Shown: positions 42,508 to 61,212 of the stretch, in pieces
How positions within the stretch are numbered: the stretch's first letter is position 1
Layout: every line of letters begins with the position of its first letter
From: a virus
Lineage: Duplodnaviria; Heunggongvirae; Uroviricota; Caudoviricetes; Crassvirales
Reading direction: 5' to 3' (one strand)
Length of the DNA stretch: 64,000 nt
Virus record (IMG/VR): IMGVR_UViG_3300037280_000040
Span: 20,379-84,378 of that record
Program-made: the position numbers and the translations under genes
The notes under the pieces: model-generated
Databases searched by the model: none
The model's input: only the letters and a program-made list of their open reading frames with translations
What the model was told of the DNA's origin: nothing

Positions 42508-42866
42508 AATGAATGTTGTTTAAAGAATGTAAATAATAAATGTTGATTAAATGAAATTTGCCAAATTTGAATGTCCCAGAGGGGGATATACCCAAGTGGC
42601 TAAGAGGTGGGGAGAGTCTGGATAGTTTATATATCACTTGTATAAAAATTTATAATTTTCAAAATTTTAGAGTATACATCACTTGCATAAACTTTTTTTA
42701 TTTCAAAAAAAAAATTAGAATTTTTAAATTTTGAATATTCAGACTAGTTAGTATAATAGGTACATAGAAAGAAGAAGTAAAAAAGGAGTGTACTCAAAGT
42801 CTTGAAATATAGATAGATATATTTATTAAAACTTATTAACTTTTATTGTGTTGTGTATGTCAATTA

Positions 42867-42885
42867 TTTTACTTATCTTTGTTGC
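42867..42885 (+). promoter_or_regulatory. Bacteroidetes-type promoter -7 box (TAtcTTTG at 42874-42881) inside the conserved TTTTACTTATCTTTGT motif
   Basis: The same extended motif recurs before six further plus-strand transcription units. Confidence 0.5.
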
Positions 42886-43586
42886 ATCTGATTAGAGTAT
42901 TACTTTCTAATATCATCCAATCTTATATAAATAAGAAGAAATGTAAGTATTGGATTAGAAGTTGGGTTGTAAGTATACAAATATAGTATATTGAGATGTC
43001 CCCAATACAGATAAAAATGACTTATATATAAGTAAATTTCAGACACCCAAGTAATTGAGAAAAGGTAAAGGTAAAGTCTGTTGAGGGATAAAAGTAGAAA
43101 TACTTTAAGACGTGGTTTATGAAGTTATAAGTTTATAAGGACTCTCAGCAATGAGAAGTTTTTTAGTCATTAACAATTTGGCTAGGACTTCTTATATCAA
43201 TAATTAAATAAATAGAAATATTAAAAACAAATAAGGAATAGAACTTAATAGGGGATTGGGGATTGTTGTATGGCAAAGAAAACTCCATTTAAAGCCTTAT
43301 TAAAGTTTATAAATTTGTAAATAAATAAATATTAATAGTATGAAATTAAAAGTAATGAACTTTAAGATTAAACTAGATATGTTTATGGTTAAATATAATA
43401 ATAATATTATTACAAGTATTATTGCTATGTTGCCATTACTATATCTATTATTTTTACTGTAGGAGAAGGAGATAAATACATAAGAATCAAGGTCTAGGAA
43501 GATAGAAAAAATTAAATATAGTTTATTTTTATCTTCTTAATCAAGTTATATGCTTAGAAATTTTATAAAAGATTTGGTAATCTCAA

Positions 43587-43608
43587 TTATTTTACATATC
43601 TTTGTATA
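43587..43608 (+). promoter_or_regulatory. Promoter motif TTTTACATATCTTTGT, with the -7 box at 43597-43604
   Basis: It shares 22 nt of context, caattattttacNtatctttgt, with the copy at 42861. Confidence 0.5.
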
Positions 43609-43794
43609 GACTTTAAGAGATGTCTATATAATTATTAATTTTTAAACTCATATCCTACTATGAAAACAACTAAGAAATCACCTAAAAAGGGTGGTGGCAA
43701 ATGCTAAAGATTTAGTAATTAAGGGGATAAGTAGTTATTCCCTTTTTTATTATTAATTTATAAAGTTTTAACTATATTTATTTGGTATATTAAG

Positions 43795-43816
43795 TAATTA
43801 TACTTATCTTTGTGTA
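43795..43816 (+). promoter_or_regulatory. Promoter motif TACTTATCTTTGTG, with the -7 box at 43805-43812, upstream of gene 43836
   Basis: Motif match. Confidence 0.5.
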
Positions 43817-43835
43817 TAATTTTAAAGGTAAGATA

Positions 43836-44117
43836 ATGAATGAAGTAGAAAGATTTATATCAGTAGTAAGAGATTCTTTTATAGGGTCACAACAAGTATA
43901 TACAGAAGGTAGTTGTTATCATTTTTATTTAATACTTAAAGAAGTATTTCCTACAGCTGAACCTTATTTTGATAAGGACCATGTTATTACTAAAATAGAT
44001 GATAAATTTTATGATATTACTGGAGAAGTAAGAGGTGATTTAACTCTCTATAAGTATGAAAGATTACCTTCTTATGGATTAAAAAGTCCTTATAATATTT
44101 ATAAGAATAATAACTAA
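43836..44117 (+). CDS. Hypothetical protein. The start was moved to the ATG at 43836 behind the promoter and an aggtaag spacer.
   Basis: The ORF listed from 43812 overlaps the promoter box. The internal Met, MNEVERF, is the likely start. Confidence 0.4.
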   Translation: MNEVERFISVVRDSFIGSQQVYTEGSCYHFYLILKEVFPTAEPYFDKDHVITKIDDKFYDITGEVRGDLTLYKYERLPSYGLKSPYNIYKNNN

Positions 44118-44123
44118 TAAAAT

Positions 44124-44194
44124 AGTTTCCTAGTGTAATGGTAGCACAAGAGTCTTTGGTCCTCTTAGTTAAAGTTCAAATCTTTAGGAGACTA
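44124..44194 (+). tRNA. tRNA-Gln (anticodon UUG)
   Basis: Manual fold: acceptor AGUUUCC/GGAGACU, D stem GUG/CAC, anticodon loop CUUUGGU, T arm UAAAG-UUCAAAU-CUUUA. Confidence 0.55.
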
Positions 44195-44203
44195 CAATAA
44201 TAT

Positions 44204-44275
44204 GCCTTTATAGTGTAATGAATAGCACACGATTCTTCTAAGATTATAGTATAGGTTTGAATCCTATTAGGGGTA
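44204..44275 (+). tRNA. tRNA-like, probably tRNA-Arg (UCU), with a weak anticodon stem
   Basis: Acceptor GCCUUUA/UAGGGGU is wobble-rich. The T arm is AUAGG-UUUGAAU-CCUAU. The anticodon loop is CUUCUAA, but only 4 of 5 stem pairs form. Confidence 0.4.
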
Positions 44276-44290
44276 CAATAATTAATAAAT

Positions 44291-44557
44291 ATGATACAAA
44301 GAGTTCCTGTATTGAGAGAATGTTCTTATAAAGAATATAATGATAACATAGATAAACATCCTGATGAATATCTTAGATTATTTGTAGTTGATAGTAATAC
44401 TGAAAGTACTGAGGATATTACAAAAGAGGTTGATGATAATATTGATGCAATAGGTAATACTGATAAGAATAAGTTTTACAAAGTATTAGGATTAGTTAGT
44501 TCTCAAGAGTTAGAAAAAGATATACAACAAACACAACAAAGTAGTTTGTTGAATTAA
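44291..44557 (+). CDS. Hypothetical acidic protein
   Basis: ORF. Confidence 0.35.
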   Translation: MIQRVPVLRECSYKEYNDNIDKHPDEYLRLFVVDSNTESTEDITKEVDDNIDAIGNTDKNKFYKVLGLVSSQELEKDIQQTQQSSLLN

Positions 44558-44718
44558 ATCATAAATGTTTTTAATAAAGTTGATTTAGCTATACTTAGTC
44601 TGTGAAGATAGAGATAGCACAAAAATATAGATATAGTTCAGTTGCTAGAATGCTTGGTTTGGGACCAAGAGGTCAAGAGTTGGAGTCTCTTTATCTATAC
44701 AATTTATTTTAGAATTAA

Positions 44719-44932
44719 AATGGAAGAAGAAAAGAAAACATTAGAACCTTATCAACTAAGAGTTATTGATGAGTTTAAAGATATTGATTTTAAAGTAAGA
44801 AAGATAGAGAAATTTATATTAACTGATGTATATAAAAATTTATCTAAATCAGAACAAAGTATGATAGACTTACAGGTTATGTATATGACTGGTTATTATA
44901 AAGTTTTAATGGAAAGAATAAATAGATTTTAA
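44719..44932 (+). CDS. Hypothetical small protein. The start was moved to the internal MEEEKKT.
   Basis: ORF. The upstream part of the listed ORF is unlikely to be coding. Confidence 0.35.
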
Positions 44933-44935
44933 TAA

Positions 44936-45009
44936 GGGGTCTTAGCTCAATTGGCTAGAGCGATTGCTTTGCAAGCAATAGGTAGTGGGTTCAATCCCCA
45001 CAGATTCCA
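44936..45009 (+). tRNA. tRNA-Ala (anticodon UGC)
   Basis: Acceptor GGGGUCU/AGAUUCC with G3:U70. D stem GCUC/GAGC. Anticodon stem AUUGC/GCAAU with loop UUUGCAA. T arm GUGGG-UUCAAUC-CCCAC. Confidence 0.75.
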
Positions 45010-45014
45010 CATAT

Positions 45015-45088
45015 GTTCTAATAGCTCAATTGGTTAGAGCTTTTGACTGTTAATCAAAGGGTTGTAGGTTCAAGTCCTACTTAGAACG
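45015..45088 (+). tRNA. tRNA-Asn (anticodon GUU)
   Basis: Acceptor GUUCUAA/UUAGAAC. Anticodon stem UUUGA/UCAAA with loop CUGUUAA. T arm GUAGG-UUCAAGU-CCUAC. Confidence 0.75.
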
Positions 45089-45111
45089 CAGTATTAATTT
45101 AATTAAAAACA

Positions 45112-45414
45112 ATGGCACAAATTGAAGTAATGTTAGAGATTATAGATGATGTAATTCCTTTATATCCTGATTTAGTATCAAAAGATTATAAAGAAACTAT
45201 CATATATGATTATAAAAATTTATTAGATACTAAAGAATCTCTATATAAATATAGAGAAATAGTAAGAGAATTAGAAGTAGCTTTAAAAGAAAGAGAATAT
45301 AAATTTAATAAACAATCTCAATTTTTTAATATTGTTTATAAGACTGAAATTAAACAAGGAGTTGATAAACCTGAATATGCTGATACTATGCATGTAAAGG
45401 GAAAAGTATATTAA
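45112..45414 (+). CDS. Hypothetical protein
   Basis: ORF. Confidence 0.4.
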   Translation: MAQIEVMLEIIDDVIPLYPDLVSKDYKETIIYDYKNLLDTKESLYKYREIVRELEVALKEREYKFNKQSQFFNIVYKTEIKQGVDKPEYADTMHVKGKVY

Positions 45415-45415
45415 T

Positions 45416-45643
45416 ATGACTTGGGAAGAAGCTTACTTAGAGATGGAGAAAGGTAATATTATTACCACTCCTAATAGTCCTAATTATTGTTTACTATATG
45501 CTCCTAATCATATATTAGTATTTTGTGAACCTGATAGATTATATCATATTAGTAGTAATAAAAGAATTAAAGAAGTTACTGATTATATAGTTGATAATAC
45601 TAAGAGAGATATTATTAATAATTTAGTAATAAAACTAAAATAG
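45416..45643 (+). CDS. Hypothetical small protein
   Basis: ORF 2 nt after the previous stop. Confidence 0.35.
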   Translation: MTWEEAYLEMEKGNIITTPNSPNYCLLYAPNHILVFCEPDRLYHISSNKRIKEVTDYIVDNTKRDIINNLVIKLK

Positions 45644-45677
45644 TTTATTTTTATCTTCCTACTCAATTTTAAAGCGT

Positions 45678-45938
45678 ATGAATAGATACTTTATAGTTAA
45701 TCCAAATCTTTATATATCTAAAGATAAATACATAGTAAGACTAACTGAATACAATATTGATACTCATATCTTTAAAGGAACTAAGATTAGTTGGATTACA
45801 AATGATGAGGATGGTAAAATAGAAGATATTAGAATAGAAGATATTGAATTGGATGATAATAAATTATCAATATTTAAAGAAATAAATAAAAGAATTTTTT
45901 ATAAGATATTATTAGTACTATTAAAGAATTCTTATTAA
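45678..45938 (+). CDS. Hypothetical small protein
   Basis: ORF. Confidence 0.35.
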   Translation: MNRYFIVNPNLYISKDKYIVRLTEYNIDTHIFKGTKISWITNDEDGKIEDIRIEDIELDDNKLSIFKEINKRIFYKILLVLLKNSY

Positions 45939-45956
45939 CCTTAAAAACTTAATAAA

Positions 45957-46397
45957 ATGGACAATTTTGATTTAGATTTAAGTCTAAGACCTAAGGGTGG
46001 TAGTGGTAATACTAGTGGTACTAGTACTTTTAAAGATTTTATATGTAAACTTGAAAGTTATAAAACTAAATTTAAGAATTTACATTGGGGAGCTATGAAT
46101 GATACTTTACATTTAAGAGTAGACCAATTCTTAGATGAGTTAACTGACTTCCAAGATGAATTATCTGAGACAGGGCAAGGTATTATAGGATTCCAATTTG
46201 GACCTAATGATATAGTTACTACTCACTTAAATTATACTGACCCAATAGTAGCTTTAACTACTCTTAAAGATAAAACATTAGCATTTCATAAAAGTATTAA
46301 TTCTAATCCTGAATTAATTGGTTTAGTAAATTCTGTAGAAGGATTTATGACTATAGTAGGAAAATTCTTATATTTATTTAGAATAGCTGCTAAGTAA
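45957..46397 (+). CDS. Hypothetical protein (146 aa)
   Basis: ORF. Confidence 0.4.
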   Translation: MDNFDLDLSLRPKGGSGNTSGTSTFKDFICKLESYKTKFKNLHWGAMNDTLHLRVDQFLDELTDFQDELSETGQGIIGFQFGPNDIVTTHLNYTDPIVALTTLKDKTLAFHKSINSNPELIGLVNSVEGFMTIVGKFLYLFRIAAK

Positions 46398-46406
46398 TTA
46401 GTCTAA

Positions 46407-46479
46407 GGACCAGTAGCTCAGTTGGTAGAGCACCTGACTCATAATCAGTAAGTCCCAAGTTCAATCCTTGGATGGTCCA
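46407..46479 (+). tRNA. tRNA with a CAU anticodon, Met or Ile2-lysidine type
   Basis: Acceptor GGACCAG/AUGGUCC with a G7·A66 mismatch. D stem GCUC/GAGC. Anticodon loop CUCAUAA. T arm CCAAG-UUCAAUC-CUUGG. Confidence 0.55.
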
Positions 46480-46480
46480 C

Positions 46481-46553
46481 TGTGTGGAAAGCTCTTATGG
46501 TGAGAGTGCCAAATTGTGGATTTGGAGGGAGGGTTCGAGTCCCTACTACACCC
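46481..46553 (+). tRNA. tRNA-like, probably tRNA-His (GUG). The acceptor/D-stem junction is irregular.
   Basis: Clean anticodon arm CCAAA-UUGUGGA-UUUGG. T loop UUCGAGU. Discriminator C, as in tRNA-His. Three A residues separate the acceptor and D stems. Confidence 0.4.
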
Positions 46554-46558
46554 TTAAT

Positions 46559-46631
46559 GGAAATATGGCAGACATGATGTATGCACTAGTTTGAAGCACT
46601 AGCTAAGGGAGTTTGAGTCTCTCTGTTTCCA
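46559..46631 (+). tRNA. tRNA-Phe (anticodon GAA)
   Basis: Acceptor GGAAAUA/UGUUUCC. Anticodon stem CUAGU/ACUAG with loop UUGAAGC. T arm GGGAG-UUUGAGU-CUCUC. Confidence 0.55.
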
Positions 46632-46692
46632 CAATATTAGTTAATACTTAAAACTTTAACAATAATAATTAGGTCATGTAGTTTATTTTACT

Positions 46693-46700
46693 TACCTTTG
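46693..46700 (+). promoter_or_regulatory. Promoter -7 box TAccTTTG inside TTTTACTTACCTTTGT, upstream of gene 46724
   Basis: Motif family match. Confidence 0.45.
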
Positions 46701-46723
46701 TATCAACAAATAAAAAATAAAGT

Positions 46724-47092
46724 ATGAGTGTAGTTTTATTAAATAGTTTGAATGCTGATAGAGATTTTATTTTAAATCTTAATGGTATTTTTAATAATGG
46801 AAAAATTATAGATAAAAAATTATTTTTTCATTCTGAAATTTATATATATTCTAATTCTACAGTAGAAGGAGTAGTAATGTATGTACCTACTAATGAGGTT
46901 TTTCTTAGAATTAAAGTAACTTATCCTACCCAAAATATTGCTAATAAGAGTGCATGGATTATGACTAGTAACTTAGAAGAAGAATTATTAAGACAAATAT
47001 TATTTGCTAAAGAAACTAATAATACTATAACTGATACTAAAGGTAATATTATTAAAACATTTGCTGATTATAAAAAAGAAATAATGCCTTGA
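46724..47092 (+). CDS. Hypothetical protein
   Basis: ORF behind the promoter motif. Confidence 0.4.
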   Translation: MSVVLLNSLNADRDFILNLNGIFNNGKIIDKKLFFHSEIYIYSNSTVEGVVMYVPTNEVFLRIKVTYPTQNIANKSAWIMTSNLEEELLRQILFAKETNNTITDTKGNIIKTFADYKKEIMP

Positions 47093-47171
47093 TGGTGGAA
47101 TTGGTAGACACGCAGGACTTAAAATCCTGTGAGCAGTAATGCTCGTATGGGTTCAAGTCCCATTCAAGGTA
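47086..47171 (+). tRNA. tRNA-Leu (anticodon UAA), type II with a long variable arm
   Basis: Acceptor GCCUUGA/UCAAGGU. Anticodon stem CAGGA/UCCUG with loop CUUAAAA. Variable-arm hairpin GAGC-AGUAAU-GCUC. T arm AUGGG-UUCAAGU-CCCAU. Confidence 0.75.
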
Positions 47172-47254
47172 CAATTATTTAGTTTCTAACAAAGTGGATG
47201 GAAGTTAGAATTAAGTGGAGACATGTAATATTCCAACTAAATAATTTTTAAAAT

Positions 47255-47326
47255 GCCAAATAAACTTTGATGATGAAGCCCACTCTTGTAAAGTGGTTTA
47301 ACTAGGTTTGAGTCCTAGATTTGGCT
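47255..47326 (+). tRNA. tRNA-Thr (anticodon UGU) with an atypical D arm
   Basis: Perfect acceptor GCCAAAU/AUUUGGC. Anticodon stem CCACU/AGUGG with loop CUUGUAA. T arm CUAGG-UUUGAGU-CCUAG. The D stem pairs poorly. Confidence 0.5.
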
Positions 47327-47337
47327 CAAAAAAAAAT

Positions 47338-47411
47338 AGCGGGTTAGAGCAGTCAGGTAGCTCAACAGACTCATAATCTGTAGGTCACTGGTTCAAATCC
47401 AGTACCCGCCA
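47338..47411 (+). tRNA. Second CAU-anticodon tRNA, with an A1·C72 mismatch
   Basis: Acceptor AGCGGGU/ACCCGCC. D stem GAGC/GCUC. Anticodon stem ACAGA/UCUGU with loop CUCAUAA. T arm ACUGG-UUCAAAU-CCAGU. Confidence 0.6.
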
Positions 47412-47434
47412 CTAAATACTTTAAATATATAAAT

Positions 47435-47680
47435 ATGAATCTAATTCAAAGACTTAAAGCTCCAACACCTATAGTTTATAAAAAGTGGGGCAAAACATTT
47501 AAATGGATTGCAGGTGCTTTAATAGCAGGAACTGTAGGAGTTAATACAACAGGATTAACATTACCAACTAATTTTAATACTTACATAGCTTCTGCTATTT
47601 TTATAACTAGTGCAGTATCAACTGCTTGTTATGCTCAAGTAGAAGATAATACAAAAGAAGATGATACTAAAAACAACTAA
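47435..47680 (+). CDS. Small membrane protein
   Basis: TM segments WIAGALIAGTVGV and ASAIFITSAVSTA. Confidence 0.35.
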   Translation: MNLIQRLKAPTPIVYKKWGKTFKWIAGALIAGTVGVNTTGLTLPTNFNTYIASAIFITSAVSTACYAQVEDNTKEDDTKNN

Positions 47681-47831
47681 CTTTACTACTAGTAGGGACT
47701 TATGTAAATTTGTTAATGCTAATGGAATTACAAAAACTAATATAGCTGCTATCTTTATTAAAGATGATGCTTTATATTTATTATATTGGGATGAAATTAA
47801 ATAATAATTAAAAATATTTGGGAGGATATTT

Positions 47832-48287: not shown

Positions 48288-48480
48288 GACTACTACTGAA
48301 GAATATAATAATATTCCTGTACATTATTGTAGTAAATGTCTCTCATTAAAAATAATGAATTACGATAATAGTATAAGTTACTGTGATGATTGTGGTAGTA
48401 CTGAAATAGAATCTACTCATATAAATAATTATTTACAACTAGTTAAAAACAAAAAAGAAGAAGATGGAAAAAGGAAATAA
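48253..48480 (+). CDS. Small zinc-ribbon protein. The start was moved to MENTKK.
   Basis: Four Cys in CSKC...CDDCGS. Confidence 0.35.
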   Translation: MENTKKLPVENKTTTEEYNNIPVHYCSKCLSLKIMNYDNSISYCDDCGSTEIESTHINNYLQLVKNKKEEDGKRK

Positions 48481-48787: not shown

Positions 48788-48799
48788 ATATTAAGAGGT

Positions 48800-49180: not shown

Positions 49181-49181
49181 T

Positions 49182-49908: not shown

Positions 49909-49922
49909 TACTTAACAATTAA

Positions 49923-50515: not shown

Positions 50516-50814
50516 TGGCTAATATAAAATATACATTAAGAGTAGAGGATTTAGCAATAGCTTTAAATAATCTTACTGGAAGTAAAGGACTTTATGTTAT
50601 TAAAAGAAACATAGAAAAGAATGAACTCTTTGGAGCTATTAAAATCTTTACTATTGAACTATTATACAAAGAAATAGGTAAAGAAATAGTATCAGTATTA
50701 AGAAGTATTAGAAGTAATAAATGTACTACTGATGTAGAAGAATTAAATAACTGGAATGAAGTAAGTATTGAGTTTACAAAAGAAGTATTAAACTATATAA
50801 AATGGAAGAAATAA
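50515..50814 (+). CDS. Hypothetical protein
   Basis: ORF with ATGA overlap. Confidence 0.35.
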   Translation: MANIKYTLRVEDLAIALNNLTGSKGLYVIKRNIEKNELFGAIKIFTIELLYKEIGKEIVSVLRSIRSNKCTTDVEELNNWNEVSIEFTKEVLNYIKWKK

Positions 50815-53171
50815 TATTAAATAAGTATCAAACTCCTATTACAGAAGAGTATTTAGAATCTCTAAATCCTGAAGTAAAAGATGATTTATTAGATGCTATT
50901 ACTAATATTGAATTTATAAAAAGATTAATAAGTCCTGATAGAAAATATGCTAAAGATTTAGATAGAAGAGCAGTAAGTATAGTTACTGATATTACTACTA
51001 ATACAAGAGTAATTGAGAATAGAATTATAGTAGATATAGTTAATCCTCATATACTTGAAGATATGGAATATTTTAGACCAACAGGTAATCATTTTAGACA
51101 ACATGGTACACTTACTAACTTAAGACCTAATGCTAATCCTAGTAGTGAATTTGGTAAATGGTTAAGACAAGAAAAGTTAAGAATTTGGTATGGAATGGTT
51201 AGACCTAGTGATGGTGAATGGATTACAGGAGATATGTATTTTTATTTAAACTATACTCCAATTATTCAATCTAAAATTAGAGAAGGTACTAAACAAGCTG
51301 ATAGAGTTATTGACTTCCCTGAGGTATGGGAAGGTATTTACTTATGGTTTCATTATCAAGACCAAGCTAGAAATGGAGGTATATATAATAATTGGGAAGG
51401 AGCAGAACATGCTATACAGATAGCTAGACGTGGAGCTAGTAAGAGTTATAGTGCTGCTGCAAGACTTGCCAAGCTATTTATATGTGGAGAGAATGAGTTA
51501 GCATGTAAGTCAGTAAAAGGAGCTGTTACAGCTTATCAGAAAGAGTATTTAACTAAAGATGGTATTCTTAATAAGTTTATTGATATTATAGATTTTAATG
51601 CTGAACATACTCAATTTCCTTCTCAAAGATTAAAGGATTCTTTGGCAGATATGTCATGGATGATGGGATATAAAGATGCTGATACTAATACTAATAAGGG
51701 TACAGGTAATGAAGTTTTAGGTATATCAGCAAAAGATAATACTGATAAATCCAGGGGTAAAAGGTCTAATATTTTTATCTATGAAGAATTTGGAGCTTTC
51801 CCTAAATTTATTGATACATGGGGAGTTAATAAATCAAATGTTCAGGAAGATGATATTGTATTTGGTCAAGCTGTAGGATTTGGTACAGGAGGTTCTGAAG
51901 GTTCAGATTTTAGTGGAGCTTTAGAAATGATTTATAATCCTATTGGTTATGGTGTATATGCTTTACCTAATGTGTATGATAAAAATAGTCAAGGTAAACA
52001 AAAGACTGTATTCTTTTTTGGTTCTTATCTAAATAGAAAAGGGTGTTATAATAAGGATGGAGTATCTGATGTTATATTAGCTTTAACTAGAGAGTTTGAA
52101 GCTAGGTTTAAAGTTAAATATAATAGTAGTGACTCAATGGCTTTAACTAGAAAAAAAGCAGAGCAAGCTATTACTATTCAAGAAGCTGTAATGAAAAGAG
52201 AGGGAACTATTTATCCAGTAGCTGACCTTACAGATAGATTAAATGAATTAGATTTTAATCCTAAAAGTTATGATGATATCTTAGTAGGACTCATCTCTTT
52301 AGATAAGGATGCTGTAGTTAGATTTAAACCTAGTAGTGAAGTTAAACCTATTAGAGAATTCCCACATAAAGATAATAAATTAGAAGGATGTATTGAGATA
52401 CATGCATTACCAGTAATGGATTCTAATAATAAAGTTTATAGAGGTAGATATATTGCAGGTATTGACCCTTATGATGATGATGCTTCAGGTACTTTATCTT
52501 TAGGTTCTTTATATATTTTAGATTTATATACTGATAAAATTGTATTTGAATATACAGGTAGACCTATGTTTGCTAATGATTTTTATGAGATTTGTAGAAG
52601 AGCTTTATTAATGTATAATGCTGAGTGTAACTATGAAAATAATAAGAAAGGTTTATTTACTTATTTTTCTACTCATAATTGTACTTACTTATTATCAGAT
52701 AATCTTGAGTTTTTAAAAGATAAAGCTTCTACTAAGGTTGAAGCAAACTATGGAAATAAAGCTAAAGGTACTATATCATCTGCTCCTATTAAAGCTTATG
52801 GTAGGAGAGCAATTAAAGAATGGTTATTAAAACCTTATACTGTTACTAAAGTTATTGATAAAGAAGAAGTAGATGTAAAAGTACCTTTTCTTACTCAACT
52901 TAACTCAAGAGCACTTATCAAGGAATTAATACTATGGAATCCTGATGGTAACTTTGATAGACATGATGCTTTAGCTATGCTTATGTTAATAAGAGAAGAT
53001 AAGTTAAGGTTATTTGGTACTAATACTCCTTCAGAATCTTTAGGTAAAGAGAGAGGAAGTGAATTAGCAGATGACCCATTTTTTACAAATAACTATAAAC
53101 CTTATAAAGAAGATACTTTTACTAAGAATTACAAGGCATTAGGACTACATTTAGATAATAATCAAGAGTAA
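50802..53171 (+). CDS. Terminase large subunit
   Basis: Walker A-like IARRGASKSYS. The C-terminal nuclease-domain motif is YIAGIDPYDDDASG. It precedes the portal gene. Confidence 0.55.
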   Translation: MEEIILNKYQTPITEEYLESLNPEVKDDLLDAITNIEFIKRLISPDRKYAKDLDRRAVSIVTDITTNTRVIENRIIVDIVNPHILEDMEYFRPTGNHFRQHGTLTNLRPNANPSSEFGKWLRQEKLRIWYGMVRPSDGEWITGDMYFYLNYTPIIQSKIREGTKQADRVIDFPEVWEGIYLWFHYQDQARNGGIYNNWEGAEHAIQIARRGASKSYSAAARLAKLFICGENELACKSVKGAVTAYQKEYLTKDGILNKFIDIIDFNAEHTQFPSQRLKDSLADMSWMMGYKDADTNTNKGTGNEVLGISAKDNTDKSRGKRSNIFIYEEFGAFPKFIDTWGVNKSNVQEDDIVFGQAVGFGTGGSEGSDFSGALEMIYNPIGYGVYALPNVYDKNSQGKQKTVFFFGSYLNRKGCYNKDGVSDVILALTREFEARFKVKYNSSDSMALTRKKAEQAITIQEAVMKREGTIYPVADLTDRLNELDFNPKSYDDILVGLISLDKDAVVRFKPSSEVKPIREFPHKDNKLEGCIEIHALPVMDSNNKVYRGRYIAGIDPYDDDASGTLSLGSLYILDLYTDKIVFEYTGRPMFANDFYEICRRALLMYNAECNYENNKKGLFTYFSTHNCTYLLSDNLEFLKDKASTKVEANYGNKAKGTISSAPIKAYGRRAIKEWLLKPYTVTKVIDKEEVDVKVPFLTQLNSRALIKELILWNPDGNFDRHDALAMLMLIREDKLRLFGTNTPSESLGKERGSELADDPFFTNNYKPYKEDTFTKNYKALGLHLDNNQE

Positions 53172-53271: not shown

Positions 53272-55686
53272 ATGTTTCAAAATAATTTACCTCCACAACA
53301 AATATCCTTCTTAAGAAAAAATAAAGAATGGAGAAAGAAACATTTAGACTGGGCAGACCACAGAACATTTGCTACTGATAGTTTAGTAAGAAACTCTGTT
53401 ATACATAAAAGAATCAATTATGATTTACTTAATGGTAAACTTAATGTAGATGATATGAATCAAGTATTAAATCCTGACTCTATACAAGCAGGATTTATAC
53501 CTGAACATATTACTCATTATCCTATTATGAATGCTAAATTAAATGTTCTTAGAGGTGAAGAATCTAAAAGAAGATTTGATTTCAGAATGATAGTAACCAA
53601 TCCAAATGCTATATCTGAGATAGAAGATAAAAAGAAAGAATTATTATTTGCTGATGTAAAAAAGTTAGTATCTAAGAATGGCTTATCAGATGACCAGTTT
53701 AATGGTGAACTAGATAAAATAAATGACTATTATAGTTATGAGTATCAAGATATTAGAGAGATTAGAGCTAATGCTTTAATACAACATTATACTAAAGAAT
53801 TAGAAATTCCTACTACATTTAACGCAGGTTTTGTAGACGCTATGAGTGTTGGTGAAGAAATTTATCAATCTGATATAGTATCAGGAGAACCAACCTTTCA
53901 AAGAATTAATCCATTAAAAATAAGAATATTTAGGTCAGGATTCTCTAACAGAATAGAAGATGCTGATATTATTGTGCTTGAAGATTTTTGGAGTCCTGGT
54001 AGAATTATTGATAATTATTATGATGCATTATCTCCAGCAGATATGGATTATATTGAACATTTACCTCAAGCTGCTTATGCAGACCAAATGGGTAATATAG
54101 ATGAAAGAAGAGCCTTTATTAATGTTAATGATTTAAGTGGTACTACAGAAGAAGGTGTAGTAATTGATAGTTATGCATTATTTACAGGACCATCAGCTAC
54201 TAATAATTACTATGATAATAGTGGTAATATTAAAGTACTTAGAGTATATTGGAAGTCTAAAAGAAAAATTAAAAAAGTAAAATTCTATGACCCTGAAACA
54301 GGTGAACCTGATTTTAAATTTTATCCTGAAACTTATACAATAGATAAAAATAAAGGAGAAGAAGAAAGTATTTATTGGATTAATGAAGCTTGGGAAGGTA
54401 CTAAAATAGGACAACATATTTATTTGAATATGAGACCTAGATTAGTTCAGTATAATAGATTAAGTAATCCATCAAGATGTCACTTTGGAATAGTAGGAAC
54501 ATTATATAATTTAAATGATTCTAGACCATTCTCAATGGTTGATATGATGAAACCTTATAATTATATGTATGATGCTACTCATGATAGATTAAATAAAGCA
54601 ATTGCTTCTAACTGGGGTAAAATACTTGAGTTAGATTTAGCATTAGTTCCTAAAGGATGGGATGTTGAGAAATGGTTATACTATGCTAAAATTAATCATA
54701 TAGCTATTAAAGATAGTTTTAAAGAGGGTAATATTGGAATAGCTACAGGTAAGTTAGCAGGGTCAATGAATAATGCTTCTAAGGGAGTAATTGATGCTGA
54801 AACAGGTTCTTATATTCAACAACATATAAATCTACTTGAGTTTATTAAAATGGAAATGGCTGAAGTAGCAGGTATTTCTAAACAAAGAGAGGGACAAATA
54901 AGTAATAGAGAAACAGTTGGAGGAGTTGAAAGGTCTAATTTACAATCATCACACATAACTGAATGGTTATTCTTACAACATGATAATACTAAAAAAAGAA
55001 GTTTAGAGTGTTTTATAGAAACAGCTAAAGTAGCTATGAAAGGTAGAAGTAAGAAATTTCAATATATCTTACCTGATGCTTCTTATAGATTAATGGATAT
55101 TGATGGTGATGAATTTGCTGAATGTGATTATGGTTGTGTTATAGATAATTCTAATGGTACAGCTGAATTAGCTTCTAAGTTAGATACATTAGCTCAAGCA
55201 GCATTACAGAATCAAACACTTGACTTCTCTACTATTATGAAGATATATACTACTACTTCATTAGCTGAGACTCAAAGAATTGTAGAAAAGAATGAACAAG
55301 CTATGCAAGAAAATAAACAAAAATCTGAGCAAGCTCAACAACAACATGAACAATCTATTGAGCAAATGAAGCAACAAAATATTATTAATAGTAATCAATT
55401 ATTAGATTCAATGAATCAAAGAGATAATGAAACTAAAATAACAGTTGCTACTATAACTGCTAATGCTAAGAGTCAACAACAACAAACCCAAGAGGAAGAT
55501 ACTCAAGAATATGACCCAGTTGCACAAGCTAAATTGTTTGAAGATATGAAACAATTTAGTTTAGAACATGGATTAAAAATTGATGATTTACAATTTAAGA
55601 AGAAAGTTCATGCTGATAATATGGATATTAAAAAGCAAGACATTGCTATTAAGAGACAGAATGCTAATAAGAAAACTACTAAATAA
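53272..55686 (+). CDS. Portal protein (804 aa) with a Gln-rich C-terminal region
   Basis: It follows the large terminase and matches crAss-like portal size. The C-terminus reads QENKQKSEQAQQQHEQSIEQMKQQN. Confidence 0.5.
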   Translation: MFQNNLPPQQISFLRKNKEWRKKHLDWADHRTFATDSLVRNSVIHKRINYDLLNGKLNVDDMNQVLNPDSIQAGFIPEHITHYPIMNAKLNVLRGEESKRRFDFRMIVTNPNAISEIEDKKKELLFADVKKLVSKNGLSDDQFNGELDKINDYYSYEYQDIREIRANALIQHYTKELEIPTTFNAGFVDAMSVGEEIYQSDIVSGEPTFQRINPLKIRIFRSGFSNRIEDADIIVLEDFWSPGRIIDNYYDALSPADMDYIEHLPQAAYADQMGNIDERRAFINVNDLSGTTEEGVVIDSYALFTGPSATNNYYDNSGNIKVLRVYWKSKRKIKKVKFYDPETGEPDFKFYPETYTIDKNKGEEESIYWINEAWEGTKIGQHIYLNMRPRLVQYNRLSNPSRCHFGIVGTLYNLNDSRPFSMVDMMKPYNYMYDATHDRLNKAIASNWGKILELDLALVPKGWDVEKWLYYAKINHIAIKDSFKEGNIGIATGKLAGSMNNASKGVIDAETGSYIQQHINLLEFIKMEMAEVAGISKQREGQISNRETVGGVERSNLQSSHITEWLFLQHDNTKKRSLECFIETAKVAMKGRSKKFQYILPDASYRLMDIDGDEFAECDYGCVIDNSNGTAELASKLDTLAQAALQNQTLDFSTIMKIYTTTSLAETQRIVEKNEQAMQENKQKSEQAQQQHEQSIEQMKQQNIINSNQLLDSMNQRDNETKITVATITANAKSQQQQTQEEDTQEYDPVAQAKLFEDMKQFSLEHGLKIDDLQFKKKVHADNMDIKKQDIAIKRQNANKKTTK

Positions 55687-55694
55687 TAAATATA

Positions 55695-56342
55695 ATGATT
55701 ATAATTTTAAATTTAATTAAAGATTTTATATTAAAACATAAGAAAGTTTTAATAAGTACTATAGGTATATTAATAACTTTATTAACTATAGTAATAATGA
55801 AGTCTACTATTAATAAACTTGAGAAAGATTTAAATGCTTCTGTTATTAATAATAAGGCATATAGTAATGAAAACTCAACTCTTAAGAATAATACAAGAGT
55901 TTTCTTATTAACTATAGACCAATTAAATGATAGCAAAGATTCTTTAAATGTTTCTTTGAATGATACTAAGAAAGCTCTAAAAATTAAAGATAAAAATTTA
56001 ATTGCTATGCAGAGTATTAAAGACCATTTTACTAAGAAAGATACTACTATTTTAAGAGATACTACTTTTGTTAAAGGTTTAGATATAGATACTATAATTG
56101 GAGATAAATTTTATACTCTTAATTTAAGATTACAATATCCTAATATCATAACTGACTCTATATCAATTGTAAATACTAAACAGATTTTTATATCAAGACA
56201 AAAAGAAACTATTAACCCTCCTAAAAAATTCTTTTTATTAAGATGGTTTCAGAAGAAACAAGAGGTTATAATAGTAAATATTAAAGATAGTAATCCTTAT
56301 ATCATAAAAGACCAAGATAGATTCATACAAATATTTAAATAA
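55695..56342 (+). CDS. Membrane-anchored protein
   Basis: N-terminal TM segment, VLISTIGILITLLTIVIM. Confidence 0.4.
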   Translation: MIIILNLIKDFILKHKKVLISTIGILITLLTIVIMKSTINKLEKDLNASVINNKAYSNENSTLKNNTRVFLLTIDQLNDSKDSLNVSLNDTKKALKIKDKNLIAMQSIKDHFTKKDTTILRDTTFVKGLDIDTIIGDKFYTLNLRLQYPNIITDSISIVNTKQIFISRQKETINPPKKFFLLRWFQKKQEVIIVNIKDSNPYIIKDQDRFIQIFK

Positions 56343-56352
56343 ATAAAGATAC

Positions 56353-56706
56353 ATGACAACACTAATAGGAGGATTAATATCAGCACTTCTAATTATCCTA
56401 GGATATGTGGTAGGTATAAGAAAAAATGATTCAGAGGTTAGAAAAAATGATGCTGATACTGCTAAAAGTACAGCTGAAACTAAAAAGATAGAATTAGATA
56501 CAAGAACAGAAGAAATAAAATTCTATGATACTTTATCTAAAACTATGACTGAACATAATAAAAGATTATTAATACAAAATGAAGAATTAATTAAAACTGT
56601 TCATAGGTTAGATGATAGGATTAAAGCTCTTGAAAATACTGTAGAGAAAATGACCTGTAATAATGCTCTTACTTGTGATAAAAAAATAAATATTAAGGCA
56701 AAATAA
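56353..56706 (+). CDS. Membrane-anchored coiled-coil protein
   Basis: TM segment LIGGLISALLIILGYVVGI followed by a charged helix. Confidence 0.4.
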   Translation: MTTLIGGLISALLIILGYVVGIRKNDSEVRKNDADTAKSTAETKKIELDTRTEEIKFYDTLSKTMTEHNKRLLIQNEELIKTVHRLDDRIKALENTVEKMTCNNALTCDKKINIKAK

Positions 56707-56707
56707 T

Positions 56708-57109
56708 ATGGATGATTTATTAGTAATATTTGATGTAGTTTCTGAGGGTAGTACTTTTCCAGGAGTAGAATTAGAAGTATATGAAGAAATAGCAGTAGAA
56801 GGGTCAGTTGACCCTACTCTTATTCCTGTTGATTTAACAGGAGCTTCTATTATTATGAACTGTGTTAAATCTAACATGGTTCATGCTATATATTCTACTG
56901 ATAATGGTAAACTAGTTATTGGTACTACTGAAATAATTAATGGTGTTACTCAAAGTGTTACACATAAGATAATTATGCCTGAACATATACCCACTTTAAC
57001 TCATGGTACATATGACTTTGACTTTAATATTACCTTAGCTAGTGGTGATAAAATCACTGGATTTGCTAAAGGACAATGGAAAATAACTAACCCTATAACT
57101 AAATTATAA
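56708..57109 (+). CDS. Hypothetical structural protein
   Basis: ORF with ATGA overlap. Confidence 0.4.
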   Translation: MDDLLVIFDVVSEGSTFPGVELEVYEEIAVEGSVDPTLIPVDLTGASIIMNCVKSNMVHAIYSTDNGKLVIGTTEIINGVTQSVTHKIIMPEHIPTLTHGTYDFDFNITLASGDKITGFAKGQWKITNPITKL

Positions 57110-59814
57110 TGCAAACTTTCAGGATAATAGTTAACCAAACTACTCAATCCTATAATGTTGTTGTAAAAAATATCATAAGGTCTTATGTTATACAAGCAAA
57201 TAGTATAAGATGGAAAAGTTTAGGAGAAAGGGGACCAGCTGGTAGAGATGGTAAGTCTGCTTTTGAACTTTCTCAAGATGCAGGATTTACTGGCTCTTTA
57301 GATGATTTTACTAAAGCACAAAAAGGAAAAGATGGATATACTCCTATAAAAGAAGTAGATTATTTTGATGGTAGTAGAGGTGTAGATGGTTATACTCCAA
57401 TTAAAGGTAAAGACTATTTTGATGGACATACTCCAGTTAAAAATGTTGATTATTTTGATGGAAGAGATGGTAATACTCCTTATATACAAGATGGTAATTG
57501 GTGGATTAGTCAATTAGATACAGGTATTTCTGCTAATGGTATAGCAGGTATAAGTCCTAATATTGGGACTAATGGTAATTGGTTTATTGGTACTACAGAT
57601 ACTGGTGTATATGCACAAGGTCCTGCGGGTGACCCTACATTATTATTAGATGATACTCAAGTTAGTTTAACTAAAACTTATAGTTCTAGTTATATTAATA
57701 GTAACTATGAAAGAATTATAGGATTAGGTAATAGTAATCAATACTTTAATGGATTAAAACAATGGGTTAATTTTCCTACTATTCCTACTCAGTATACTGA
57801 TACAATGGCTAGAGCTGCACAATATACAGCTAATGGTACAACAACAGGATTACTTACTTATACAGACTTTTTAGTTTTTAATGCTAAAGTTACATTTCCT
57901 GGATTTGGTACTAGTCATGTTACAGCAGCTTATGGTGACCATAGCCATAGTGGAATATATCAACCAGTTGGAAGTTACCTTACTTCATATACCGAGACTG
58001 ACCCCATATTTACTGCTTGGAATAAGTCTACAGGAATTAGTATAACTAAATCACAAGTATTAGACTTCCCCACACAGTTATCCCAATTTACTAATAATTT
58101 AGGAAACTATGGGGGATATCTAACTAGTATTACCTCAAGTCAAATTACTACAGCTTTAGGTTTTACTCCATATAATGCTACCAATCCTAATAATTATATT
58201 AGTAGCATAACAAGTTCACAAATAACAAATGCACTAGGTAGTCAAACTGCTAATATGGTATATGCATCACCTAATGGAAGTGCAGGTAATCCATCATTCA
58301 GATATTTACAATCAGCTGATATACCAAGTGGAGTCAATGCATATATTTGGAATCAAACCTCTCAACAGTCAGCTACTATAAATGTAAGTGGTAGTGTAAC
58401 AGGGACTGGTGGCTTATTTAAAAGTGACTATTATATGTCATCTCCAAATGGGGGATTATTTATAACATCTAATGGAGGTTTTACAGGAGCAATAACTATA
58501 ACTCTACCTGCTTCAATAGGTGCTACTATGACAAGCATGTGGATAGATGTTTATAACTATGCTGCTGATACTAGCTTTTCTGTTCAAGTTGGTGGATATA
58601 CCTATACTGGGAATACATGGGCTAATAGTCCATTTGCTATAGTATATGGTGCTGATTATACAGTTAGATTAGGTCATAATGGGACTAACTTTGTGATTTA
58701 TATAGGTGAAACTTCTACAACATGGTCTTACCCACAAGTATCAGTAAGAGATATTATTTTAGGTTATGCAGCATCTACTACTAATTGGAAAAATAGTATA
58801 GGAGTATCATTTTCAACATCTTTTTTAAATGTTACTGCAACTTGTACAACAAAAGCATGGACAACTAAAAATTTTTCACCATCTAATTATTTACCTTTAA
58901 CAGGTGGTTCATTAAGTGGTTCACTAAATATAACTGGTTCTAATTGGCTTAATATGACAACAGCAACTTACTCTAATGTTGCTATACTTACAGGAAATTG
59001 GGTAGGTGCAGGTATATGGGGTTTTGGAAATGAAAATGGACATATTTTAAAATTTGACCAAGTTTCAGGACAAGCATTTCAAGGGGCAAGCGATATAACT
59101 TTAAAATTAGGAACTAAAACAGTTATTGATAGTAGTTCTATTGGTGCACAATCAGTAAACTATGCATCTACAGCAGGCAGTGCAGGTTATGCAGGAAGTG
59201 CAAATGGTATTAGTCTAGGTACAGCTATAACAAACCTAAACACATTCTATACATCAAATGGTAATTCAATCCAATTTGCCCAATATGGAGTTGGGACTAC
59301 TGGTATACCTACATTTAACAGTGCTGCATTCGATGGATTTGTTATGAATTTTAATTGGTATTCAACTAATGCTAATAGTTATGGCTCTCAAATTGCTTTT
59401 GGTAATGATAGTGCTAGTGGTCAAGAGGAGATTGCATTTAGAGGTCGCGATATAAATGGCAATCAAGGTACTTGGAAACAGATATTTCATAGTGGAAATA
59501 TTGCTAGTTTACAAACAGCATTTGGTACTCCTTGGACATCAGCTGGTTATTTAGCAAGTTCTGCAGCAAGTTATGTTACAAATGGATATCAGAAACTTAG
59601 TAATGGATTCATAATACAATGGGGACAAGCAACAGCAAACAATACAGTTTATTTCCCAGTTGCATTTACTACAAGAGTATTCTATATAGGTGGTAGCAAT
59701 ATATCAAACAATAATACAGAAGCATTCTCTATAACTAGTTTAACCCTATCTAGTTTCTACTTTAATGAGTATGGAAAGACAAATACTGGTAACTGGTTAG
59801 CTATGGGATATTAA
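57109..59814 (+). CDS. Tail fibre / receptor-binding protein with collagen-like repeats
   Basis: GERGPAGRDGKS and the repeats KGKDGYTPIKEVDYFDG, SRGVDGYTPIKGKDYFDG and HTPVKNVDYFDGRDG. The long C-terminal region is Ser/Thr/Gly/Asn-rich. Confidence 0.5.
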   Translation: MQTFRIIVNQTTQSYNVVVKNIIRSYVIQANSIRWKSLGERGPAGRDGKSAFELSQDAGFTGSLDDFTKAQKGKDGYTPIKEVDYFDGSRGVDGYTPIKGKDYFDGHTPVKNVDYFDGRDGNTPYIQDGNWWISQLDTGISANGIAGISPNIGTNGNWFIGTTDTGVYAQGPAGDPTLLLDDTQVSLTKTYSSSYINSNYERIIGLGNSNQYFNGLKQWVNFPTIPTQYTDTMARAAQYTANGTTTGLLTYTDFLVFNAKVTFPGFGTSHVTAAYGDHSHSGIYQPVGSYLTSYTETDPIFTAWNKSTGISITKSQVLDFPTQLSQFTNNLGNYGGYLTSITSSQITTALGFTPYNATNPNNYISSITSSQITNALGSQTANMVYASPNGSAGNPSFRYLQSADIPSGVNAYIWNQTSQQSATINVSGSVTGTGGLFKSDYYMSSPNGGLFITSNGGFTGAITITLPASIGATMTSMWIDVYNYAADTSFSVQVGGYTYTGNTWANSPFAIVYGADYTVRLGHNGTNFVIYIGETSTTWSYPQVSVRDIILGYAASTTNWKNSIGVSFSTSFLNVTATCTTKAWTTKNFSPSNYLPLTGGSLSGSLNITGSNWLNMTTATYSNVAILTGNWVGAGIWGFGNENGHILKFDQVSGQAFQGASDITLKLGTKTVIDSSSIGAQSVNYASTAGSAGYAGSANGISLGTAITNLNTFYTSNGNSIQFAQYGVGTTGIPTFNSAAFDGFVMNFNWYSTNANSYGSQIAFGNDSASGQEEIAFRGRDINGNQGTWKQIFHSGNIASLQTAFGTPWTSAGYLASSAASYVTNGYQKLSNGFIIQWGQATANNTVYFPVAFTTRVFYIGGSNISNNNTEAFSITSLTLSSFYFNEYGKTNTGNWLAMGY

Positions 59815-59893
59815 TATAGTGATAAATACATATACATATTCAGTTTAGTATTAATAAAATAATAAATAGCTTGTATATATAAAATATTTTTCT

Positions 59894-59901
59894 TATATTT
59901 G
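59894..59901 (+). promoter_or_regulatory. Promoter -7 box variant TAtaTTTG upstream of gene 59935
   Basis: TTTTTCTTATATTTGTATATT. Confidence 0.4.
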
Positions 59902-59934
59902 TATATTAATTTAATAAAATAATAAAAAAAGATT

Positions 59935-60210
59935 ATGGAAATTACAAAAACAAATGAAACTACTACTACAGAAGCTAATGTAATTATAGGTAGTATTATT
60001 TATACTTTTAACTATGTATCAAAGGATTCTAAAGTTCTAAGTTTAAATGGAAATGCAGTTATAGATAGTAAAAATATAGCTACTTTTAATGTATATCCTT
60101 CAGGGATTACATCTAATAGTAATATTAATTTTTCTGCTGATTGTACTATTGATAATAAAAAATTAATAGTAGGAGATGTAGATGATATCTATACTACAAT
60201 AAGTAAATAA
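59935..60210 (+). CDS. Hypothetical small protein
   Basis: ORF. Confidence 0.35.
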   Translation: MEITKTNETTTTEANVIIGSIIYTFNYVSKDSKVLSLNGNAVIDSKNIATFNVYPSGITSNSNINFSADCTIDNKKLIVGDVDDIYTTISK

Positions 60211-60233
60211 TTAATTAATTTTAAAAAGGGGAG

Positions 60234-60677
60234 ATGAAAAATTACAAAGTAAAAATGCTATTTGAAGGAGTATCAGAACTATTAAACTATTGTTATAAAC
60301 AAAACATTAAAAATATAGTTCTTACTACTAGATTGAATCAAAATTTAATTCTTTTAAAAGATGCTACAGAAATCATAGATAAATGTGTATCTCAAGAATT
60401 AAAAGACTTGGAAAAGAAAGCTTGGGAAGCTTTAGAATTAAAGAAAAAAGAAATGATTGAAGCAAAAGAATCAATTGATAATCTTAATTTCTTTGATGCT
60501 CTTAAATTACTATCTGAGGAAGAAAGAGAGAAACATACAGAGTTAATGAAAGAGTATGAGAAAGATATGGATAAAGAATATGTGATTAAACTTATTCTTA
60601 TTGATGTTGAAGATTTAAAAAATACATCAATTGACCCAAGATACTCACCTTTATTAGCTGAATTAATAACAAAATAA
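60234..60677 (+). CDS. Hypothetical protein
   Basis: ORF with a gggaga RBS-like element upstream. Confidence 0.4.
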   Translation: MKNYKVKMLFEGVSELLNYCYKQNIKNIVLTTRLNQNLILLKDATEIIDKCVSQELKDLEKKAWEALELKKKEMIEAKESIDNLNFFDALKLLSEEEREKHTELMKEYEKDMDKEYVIKLILIDVEDLKNTSIDPRYSPLLAELITK

Positions 60678-60678
60678 T

Positions 60679-61104
60679 ATGGAACTATTAGTTAAAAGAA
60701 TATATTTAGCTCCTGATTATACTATAGGTAAACTTAGTATAAATGGAGTTTATTTCTGTGATACCTTAGAAGATACTAACAGAGATATTAATAAAGATGG
60801 TAAGTTTGATAATAATGAAGCTAAAGTATTTAGTAAAACATGTATTCCTTTTGGAAAATATGAAGTAACTATGACTTACTCTAATCATTTTAAAAGAGTA
60901 TTACCTTTACTTATTAATGTACCTTCCTTTGCAGGAGTTAGAATACATTCAGGTAATGATGTTGAAGATACAGAAGGTTGTATTTTAGTAGGTAATAATA
61001 CTGCAAAAGGTAAGTTAACTACATCAAGAGTTGCTTCAGATAAGTTAAATCAATTAATAACAGAAGCTATTAAGACTGAGAAAGTTTTTATAACTTTAGA
61101 GTAA
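60679..61104 (+). CDS. Hypothetical protein with an H-x11-GC motif reminiscent of L,D-transpeptidase (YkuD-like) catalytic sites
   Basis: VRIHSGNDVEDTEGCILVG. Confidence 0.3.
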   Translation: MELLVKRIYLAPDYTIGKLSINGVYFCDTLEDTNRDINKDGKFDNNEAKVFSKTCIPFGKYEVTMTYSNHFKRVLPLLINVPSFAGVRIHSGNDVEDTEGCILVGNNTAKGKLTTSRVASDKLNQLITEAIKTEKVFITLE

Positions 61105-61139
61105 AATTAGTATTATAAATAATTTCAAAGTATAAGTAA

Positions 61140-61172
61140 AAAACTTAATGATTTGCATATATTAAGTTTTTT
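61140..61172 (+). terminator. AT-rich hairpin terminator, 10-bp stem aaaacttaat/attaagtttt, directly before a promoter box
   Basis: Perfect inverted repeat with an 11-nt loop followed by TT. The promoter box is at 61176-61183. Confidence 0.45.
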
Positions 61173-61175
61173 ACA

Positions 61176-61183
61176 TATCTTTG
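61176..61183 (+). promoter_or_regulatory. Promoter -7 box TAtcTTTG inside TTTTACATATCTTTGT, upstream of the scaffold gene
   Basis: Motif family match. Confidence 0.5.
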
Positions 61184-61212
61184 TTTAATAAATTAAAAAG
61201 GGAGAACAATTT

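Follow-up and report, generated by a model that had tools for sequence, protein, structure and literature searches.

Probable Bacteroidetes sigma-A-type promoters ahead of the plus-strand transcription units of an uncultured crAss-like phage

A short sequence element recurs at the heads of the plus-strand transcription units in a 64,000-nucleotide (nt) stretch of an uncultured crAss-like phage genome (positions 20,379 to 84,378 of IMG/VR record IMGVR_UViG_3300037280_000040; hereafter, the window), and it raises the question of whether these units are read from promoters of the host type or from a signal peculiar to the phage. A first-pass annotation, made from the letters alone, had proposed both at once: expression driven by host RNA polymerase from a Bacteroidetes sigma-A-type -7 box, embedded in a phage-specific extended recognition sequence. 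The window has a G+C content of 27% and switches coding strand near 42.5 kb. Its terminase, portal and head proteins assign it to the crAss-like phages, and, of the named phages, Cellulophaga phage phi14:2 and a Kolpuevirus are closest to it in DNA sequence. The 42 kb of minus-strand genes include those for a family-A DNA polymerase, ribonucleotide reductase, two helicases, a primase, an exonuclease and a dUTPase, and the polymerase, reductase, helicase, primase and exonuclease genes identify this block as the replication module; the plus-strand module carries transfer RNA (tRNA), packaging and head genes. We find nine copies of a 35-nt element that is statistically significant, regularly placed, conserved among relatives, identical in sequence to mapped promoters of phi14:2 and present in front of housekeeping genes in Bacteroidales genomes. 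With a probability of roughly 85%, the nine elements are host sigma-A holoenzyme promoters that divide the non-replicative module into units and leave the replication module to a virion polymerase, as in phi14:2.

The seven -7 boxes (TAnnTTTG) named in the first-pass annotation, at 42874, 43597, 43805, 46693, 53243, 59894 and 61176, are all present, and two further copies, at 30533-30567 on the plus strand and 4730-4764 on the minus strand, bring the total in the window to nine; we refer to the seven, in order, as P1 to P7 and to the additional copies as P8 and P9. The box by itself is not enriched in the window, with 91 occurrences observed against 105 expected, so the signal resides in the extended motif. 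This was apparent when the 16-mer TTTTACWTATCTTTGT was compared with a shuffled background, a check that the annotation had itself suggested: at up to 2 mismatches it was found 10 times, versus 0.96 +/- 0.94 times in 100 dinucleotide-preserving shuffles of the window, none of which reached 10. A 35-nt matrix run on the window returned nine sites, each above 30 bits, with none between 8 and 30 bits and a shuffle maximum of 20.3. Leave-one-out scores ranged from 20 to 36 bits per site, compared with at most 9.4 for the best non-site, and P9 scored 30.9 bits although it was absent from the matrix training set.

The first-pass annotation had overlooked a -33 element, TTG (mostly TTTG), located exactly 20 nt before the TA of the -7 box. 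The conserved unit spans 35 nt and consists of TTTG, a constant 20-nt spacer and TAnnTTTGT. The TAnnTTTG element is found in nine of nine copies and TTG at the 20-nt spacing in eight, with TAG in its place in the ninth (P4); the spacer is A/T-rich, fixed in length and conserved at internal positions. Given this exact 20-nt separation of TTG and the box, we consider the unit to be a complete -33/-7 promoter of the Bacteroidetes sigma-A class. Published promoters of the Bacteroidetes primary sigma factor (sigma-A, or sigma-ABfr) combine a -33 TTTG and a -7 TAnnTTTG across an A/T-rich spacer of variable length, 19-21 nt (PMC7366714, PMC9723704). The window elements resemble these in having both blocks, a spacing within the published range and short leaders, and, if the published geometry holds, the box would lie at -12 to -5 from the start. 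They depart from the published consensus in having a spacer of exactly 20 nt with conserved internal positions, and this extended, fixed-spacer form may be a feature of the lineage, since it is present in the Bacteroidales genomes examined as well. A literature search found no relevant structure in which a Bacteroidetes holoenzyme is bound to its promoter.

The canonical degenerate pattern, TTG-N18-22-TAnnTTTG, leads to the same sites. It matches the window 17 times versus 9.2 +/- 3 expected. Eight of the matches are intergenic and in the sense orientation; every one of these is a member of the nine-copy family and has the 20-nt spacer, the ninth copy being the one with TAG. One other match is intergenic and lies antisense within a transfer-messenger RNA (tmRNA) gene, and the eight matches in coding regions are at chance level. 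Promoters of the E. coli -35/-10 type were also considered and rejected; their pattern was found 100 times versus 134 in shuffles, and none of the nine sites was among the matches.

All nine copies are intergenic, in a window whose intergenic share is 14.6%, and all nine are in the sense orientation relative to the downstream gene. In seven of them the element ends 19-31 nt from a start codon. The annotation had placed each box 25-35 nt before a start codon or at the head of a gene run; measured from the -7 box to the ATG the distance is 29-41 nt, and the copies at 42874 and 43597 have no open reading frame (ORF) at such a distance. It had also described a 22-nt sequence shared by these two copies. 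The near-identity is real, with 21 of 22 bases in common, and the second stretch begins at 43584 and not at 43581.

Promoters of this kind have been mapped experimentally in phi14:2. The replication module of that phage is early, rifampicin-resistant and transcribed by the virion polymerase (Drobysheva et al., bioRxiv 10.1101/2020.03.07.982082; Nature 2021), and its early 5′ ends share no motif, while the middle and late modules, which have the opposite orientation, are rifampicin-sensitive (bioRxiv 10.1101/2020.03.07.982082). An "extended tripartite motif", which includes two -35/-10-like blocks, precedes the mapped middle 5′ ends, and sigma-70 holoenzyme transcribes the middle promoters in vitro (bioRxiv 10.1101/2020.03.07.982082). 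The same study reported 126 similar sites in 14 crAss-like genomes, mostly before the portal, gp092, IHF and polymerase genes and tRNAs, and described the giant virion RNA polymerase that crAss-like phages carry (bioRxiv 10.1101/2020.03.07.982082).

A matrix built on relatives of the window phage, and untrained on phi14:2, recovered the phi14:2 promoters P075, P108 and P110 on the right strand; P070 was not recovered by this fixed-spacing matrix. A strict version of the extended pattern (TTGCATATRTCA-N4-TTTTA-N2-TA-N2-TTTG, 22 fixed bases) matches P108 exactly, as is evident when P108, TTTGCATATGTCAAATATTTTACGTAGTTTTGT, is set beside P7 of the window, TTTGCATATATTAAGTTTTTTACATATCTTTGT. The arrangement is also alike in the two phages. 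P3, P4, P5 and P7 stand before tRNA and small genes, the portal gene and the gp092 homologue; the motif is confined to the strand of the non-replicative modules, and tandem promoters mark the head of the non-replicative module. The window phage differs in being a distinct, uncultured phage whose portal DNA is ~71% identical to that of phi14:2 over a short stretch only, whose promoters are read from sequence, and which has extra copies before homing-endonuclease genes and a promoter apparently dedicated to a structured RNA. Given the shared sequence and the recovery of P108, P075 and P110, we regard the window elements as new members of a promoter class already described for crAss-like phages, which the present finding confirms and does not discover. 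A detail of the phi14:2 set is that at P110 (47752-47788, minus strand) the start codon of g110 follows just 3 nt after the TTTGT of the -7 box (TATCTTTGTagtATG), which puts the predicted transcription start at or within the annotated g110 start codon.

To follow the element among relatives we used 80 loci retrieved through the portal protein (~57-65% amino-acid identity; 1.41 Mb in all). A matrix refined on these loci gave 250 matches on the gene strand versus 2 on the opposite strand, totals that are partly circular because these loci were also the training set of the family matrix; the contrast from gene to gene and the matches in phi14:2 and in host genomes are not circular. A promoter match lies within 90 nt upstream of the portal gene in 58 of 78 loci and in front of the gp092-like gene in 20 of 20, whereas none was found upstream of the terminase gene (0/72), the capsid gene (0/17) or two further conserved genes. 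When the portal upstream regions are aligned, the flanks have diverged, and in almost every locus TTG, the T-tract and TAnnTTTG(C/T)A still line up. In the window the family matrix also gives a weak promoter-like match, 15.9 bits, at 26104-26138 on the minus strand, inside a helicase-like gene (25859-27082, minus strand); it may be a chance occurrence or a weak internal promoter.

The strict pattern bears on whether the extended recognition sequence is phage-specific, as first proposed. It has 89 matches in viral contigs and 61 in a collection of bacterial and archaeal genomes. The latter come mostly from Paludibacteraceae and other uncultured Bacteroidales of ruminant and other guts; 48 of the 61 loci have a G+C content of 40-55%, and several lie on contigs of 100-400 kb. 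At most chromosomal matches an ORF starts within ~60 nt of the motif. Pfam matches were obtained for 17 of 20 scanned downstream ORFs, every one an ordinary cellular protein, and the genes concerned include those for SecA, glutamyl-tRNA synthetase (GltX), MnmE, DapB, a Mur ligase, asparaginase, a LacI-type regulator, a response regulator, alpha-amylase and a PPIase. A matrix trained on phage sites only, applied to 359 kb of these host loci, detected 83 additional sites, versus 0 in shuffles, and 61 of the 83 have an ORF start within 150 nt. Their consensus, TTTGCaTATnTcAAAAAttTtTtGTACCTTTGCAg, has a spacer block at least as strong as that of the phage sites, and the promoters before housekeeping genes keep that block (CATATnTCA) and the T-tract at least as well. 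The housekeeping-gene matches and the 83 matrix sites lead us to view the extended motif as the ordinary promoter of the Bacteroidales lineage, copied by the phage, and the idea of a phage-specific extension is not borne out. The concentration of exact matches in Paludibacteraceae and uncultured Bacteroidales of ruminant guts is, in addition, a hint to the lineage of the host. Separately, several low-G+C matches in bins labelled Bacilli, Clostridia, Acholeplasmatales, Alphaproteobacteria and Methanosarcina look like mis-binned crAss-like phage contigs.

Phage and host sites do differ in detail. G occupies the position directly 5′ of the -7 box (-13) in 83% of host sites and in 11% of those from phages (p = 3e-37), and all nine window sites have T or A there; the discriminator is A/T-rich in phage sites and G/C-rich in host sites; and position 21 is T in 94% of phage sites versus 68% of host sites. 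The difference before the -7 box could reflect a drift in composition or act as a signal, and as a difference between phage and host at a single position it provides a testable lead on timing control, some form of which exists in phi14:2, where the motif-bearing genes belong to the middle and late classes. These observations speak for an alternative in which the promoters need a phage-encoded factor, the spacer and the non-G base being read by an early activator or sigma-modifier, in the manner of T4 MotA/AsiA, so that expression is delayed. Middle and late, and not early, expression of the phi14:2 counterparts would fit such a scheme, as would the depletion of G at -13 and the prevalence of T at position 21. 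We nevertheless consider it unlikely. The CATATnTCA block and the T-tract are no less conserved before host housekeeping genes, sigma-70 holoenzyme transcribes phi14:2 promoters in vitro on its own, and the A/T differences possibly stem from nothing but the low G+C content of the phage. In addition, no sigma-like or activator gene was identified among those ORFs of the window, some only, that were compared with family libraries.

An enzyme of the phage is a still poorer candidate. The proposal that the phage's own RNA polymerase recognizes the motif as its promoter draws on the giant virion RNA polymerase of crAss-like phages, yet in phi14:2 that enzyme transcribes the early replication module, which has no motif in common at its 5′ ends, and the motif-bearing genes are the rifampicin-sensitive ones. 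In the window the replication module lacks the motif except for the two HNH-associated copies, and the motif is identical to cellular housekeeping promoters. We therefore think this reading very improbable. A motif shared by the minus-strand, early genes was itself sought; all that emerged were local repeats in the divergent region that separates the modules, with no window-wide enrichment. The notion that the copies merely resemble promoters, and are intergenic repeats that serve for DNA binding, as a recombination hotspot or as a spreading cassette, is just as improbable as a phage-polymerase promoter. One could cite for it the 21 of 22 bases common to two copies and the association with mobile endonuclease genes, but it is at odds with the strictly sense orientation (9/9 in the window, 250/252 in relatives), the fixed distance to the start codon, conservation limited to the promoter blocks with diverging flanks, and the 5′ ends mapped at such sites in phi14:2.

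Several points weigh against reading the nine elements as host sigma-A promoters. P4 departs from the -33 consensus, with TAG instead of TTG. The "host" Bacteroidales genomes were chosen by the motif, and may not represent the phage's own host lineage; the totals in relatives carry the circularity described above. The differences before the -7 box and in the discriminator may leave room for a phage-encoded modifier. Finally, the start sites, the use of host polymerase in this phage and the timing of expression are predictions that draw on sequence and on the example of phi14:2.

According to the host-promoter reading, the primary-sigma RNA polymerase of the host would recognize the -33 TTTG, the 20-nt spacer and the -7 TAnnTTTG and would start transcription ~5 nt past the final G of the box, which by the published geometry (box at -12 to -5) predicts leaders of 17-29 nt for seven sites. 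P1 to P7 would split the plus-strand module into units for a structured RNA, a short RNA, two tRNA/small-gene runs (the second ending in the terminase gene), a run from the portal to a fibre-like gene, a small-gene run, and a gp092-like and capsid unit. The genes of the middle and late classes in this crAss-like phage would thereby be passed to the polymerase of the host. By analogy with phi14:2, the injected virion RNA polymerase would transcribe the opposite-strand replication module, and HNH homing-endonuclease genes situated within that module would be expressed from the two further copies. The published rule, which assigns replication genes to the virion polymerase and the other modules, by way of consensus host promoters, to the host polymerase, would then extend to one more uncultured crAss-like lineage. 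For annotation, the 35-nt matrix supplies clean transcription-unit boundaries in such phages; for the tail and RNA-polymerase modules of this genome, which are located beyond the window, it predicts more sites, ahead of the IHF-like, gp069-like and polymerase genes. Most likely to be new are the structured RNA linked to P1 and the endonuclease genes with promoters of their own, described below after the sites themselves.

The annotation had assigned copies to the portal, capsid and tRNA/small-gene units, and this distribution is borne out. P1 (42850..42884, plus strand) consists of GTTG, a 20-nt spacer and TATCTTTG, and scores 38.9 bits with the matrix and 26.3 in the leave-one-out test. It comes first among the promoters of the plus-strand module and is predicted to drive a non-coding structured RNA. 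P2 (43573..43607, plus strand; 42.5 bits) heads a short unit (~140 nt) closed by an intrinsic terminator at 43721-43744. P3 (43781..43815, plus strand) lies 21 nt before a YunG-like gene (43836-44117) at the head of a tRNA-rich run with eight tRNAs (tRNA-Gln, Arg, Pro, Ala, Asn, Met, His and Phe). P4 (46669..46703, plus strand) heads the run that starts at gene 46724-47092 and continues through tRNA-Leu, tRNA-Met and small genes up to the large terminase gene (50802-53171), which has no promoter of its own either here or in the 72 relatives. P5 (53219..53253, plus strand) is 19 nt before the portal gene (53272-55686), and its unit extends through a fibre-like protein of 901 amino acids. P6 (59870..59904, plus strand) precedes three small genes (59935-61104), one of which encodes a DUF5675 protein, and P7 (61152..61186, plus strand) precedes the gp092-like gene (61213-62349), whose product matches phi14:2 gp092 with E = 5e-26 and which is followed by the major head protein gene (62393-63883). 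P8 (30533..30567, plus strand) and P9 (4730..4764, minus strand), both outside the range covered by the first-pass annotation, are 20 nt and 22 nt, respectively, before HNH endonuclease genes at 30587-31075 (plus strand) and 4175-4708 (minus strand). They are the only copies of the motif in the 42-kb replication block.

No plausible ORF follows P1. Its predicted transcript of ~300 nt (42886..43211, plus strand; core 42945-43134) lies upstream of the phage tRNA array and is a conserved structured RNA. At the DNA level it is 71-79% identical in relatives whose portal proteins are only ~60% identical. The covariance model found it in 15 of 83 first sources and in 65 of 65 contigs retrieved by a conserved-block pattern, mostly crAss-like contigs of 90-106 kb. 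RNA and promoter are conserved together in at least 70 crAss-like contigs, with the promoter 43-60 nt upstream in 66 of 70. When 18 diverse copies were aligned with MAFFT alone, compensatory changes were seen in 22 of 23 predicted pairs. Paired cells amount to 87%, versus 60% in shuffled alignments (0/500 reach 87%) and 34-48% when partners are slid, and the covariation score is 0.70 versus 0.22 (shuffled) and at most 0.15 (slid). A further helix was identified without an alignment: a perfect 6-base-pair stem is present in 55 of 61 distinct sequences, and its flanking 6-mers occur in 14 versions. In all, at least five helices are backed by compensatory changes, and several single-stranded blocks are invariant, among them CAGAAGUUGGGU, GUCCCCAAUAC and UGAGAAAAGGUAMAGG.

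Attempts to match this RNA to a described family gave no candidate. Neither the window copy nor its G+C-richer relatives have an Rfam match; a BLAST search of 50,697 GenBank phage records returned only a 27-nt match to the promoter; and a covariance-model search of phi14:2 (bases 1-100,000 of 100,418) found no copy. RNase P RNA was rejected because the order of motifs does not fit by eye and there is no Rfam score, and tmRNA, 6S, SRP and GOLLD/ROOL because no Rfam family scores. A literature search found nothing relevant on a described crAss non-coding RNA. With a little better than even confidence we propose that P1 exists to make this undescribed structured RNA, which could be a new ribonucleoprotein or regulatory RNA, and, as a separate part of the same proposal, that the T or A before the -7 box could be a phage-specific timing signal.

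The short transcript predicted from P2 (43609..43750, plus strand) ends with the strong terminator hairpin at 43721-43744 and has a fold z-score of -2.6. The only ORF after P2 encodes 15 amino acids (MKTTKKSPKKGGGKC), and the transcript shows no nucleotide-level conservation in relatives. The unit could specify a small RNA or a micro-peptide.

In phage T4, homing-endonuclease genes carry their own middle or late promoters, within introns or between genes. Both HNH genes of the window have a comparable arrangement. The family-A DNA polymerase gene (4841-6724, minus strand) is shortened by an insertion (3886-4940, minus strand) that holds the HNH gene 4175-4708 together with P9. Of the 381 positions of the truncated polymerase, the Pfam match spans 29-303; near 4100 the polymerase frame continues, in a putative downstream exon with a VHDE motif. 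A weak match to the group I intron family RF00028 at 4721-4939 (minus strand; 19.9 bits, E = 0.018) is below the family threshold. The second HNH gene (30587-31075), served by P8, is free-standing and is the sole plus-strand gene within the minus-strand replication module. A related case is found in Bacteroides phage PhiCrAssBcn14 (OQ221549.1, 1496-2429), where the same 35-mer promoter, with 27 nt identical to P1 of the window, lies 20 nt before a LAGLIDADG endonuclease gene, and a fragment annotated as replicative DNA helicase stands on either side of that gene. As in T4, endonuclease genes inside early replication genes are accompanied by a private copy of a later-class promoter, two of them with HNH genes here; unlike T4, the polymerase and the promoter type are different, and an intron is only tentatively suggested, by the RF00028 match.

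Other features of the window can be noted. The divergent region between the two modules (42070-42132, 42623-42709) contains three 17-nt repeats, 23 nt apart, of the type TATCAATGTAACAATGT, and a 42-nt direct repeat with a start-to-start spacing of 45 nt that includes ATCACTTGYATAAA. A hairpin at 42160-42187 resembles a bidirectional terminator. The repeats and the hairpin could be elements of an origin or of early promoters. Within the replication block, a 1-kb stretch free of ORFs contains the phage-encoded tmRNA gene (28814-29224, minus strand), upstream of which a scan with the 35-nt matrix did not find the promoter motif. The gene was called by ARAGORN, with the tag peptide GKTIVFVPAAKLALVA, and at the same coordinates Rfam family RF00023 scores 46.2 bits (threshold 47), with E = 8e-16.

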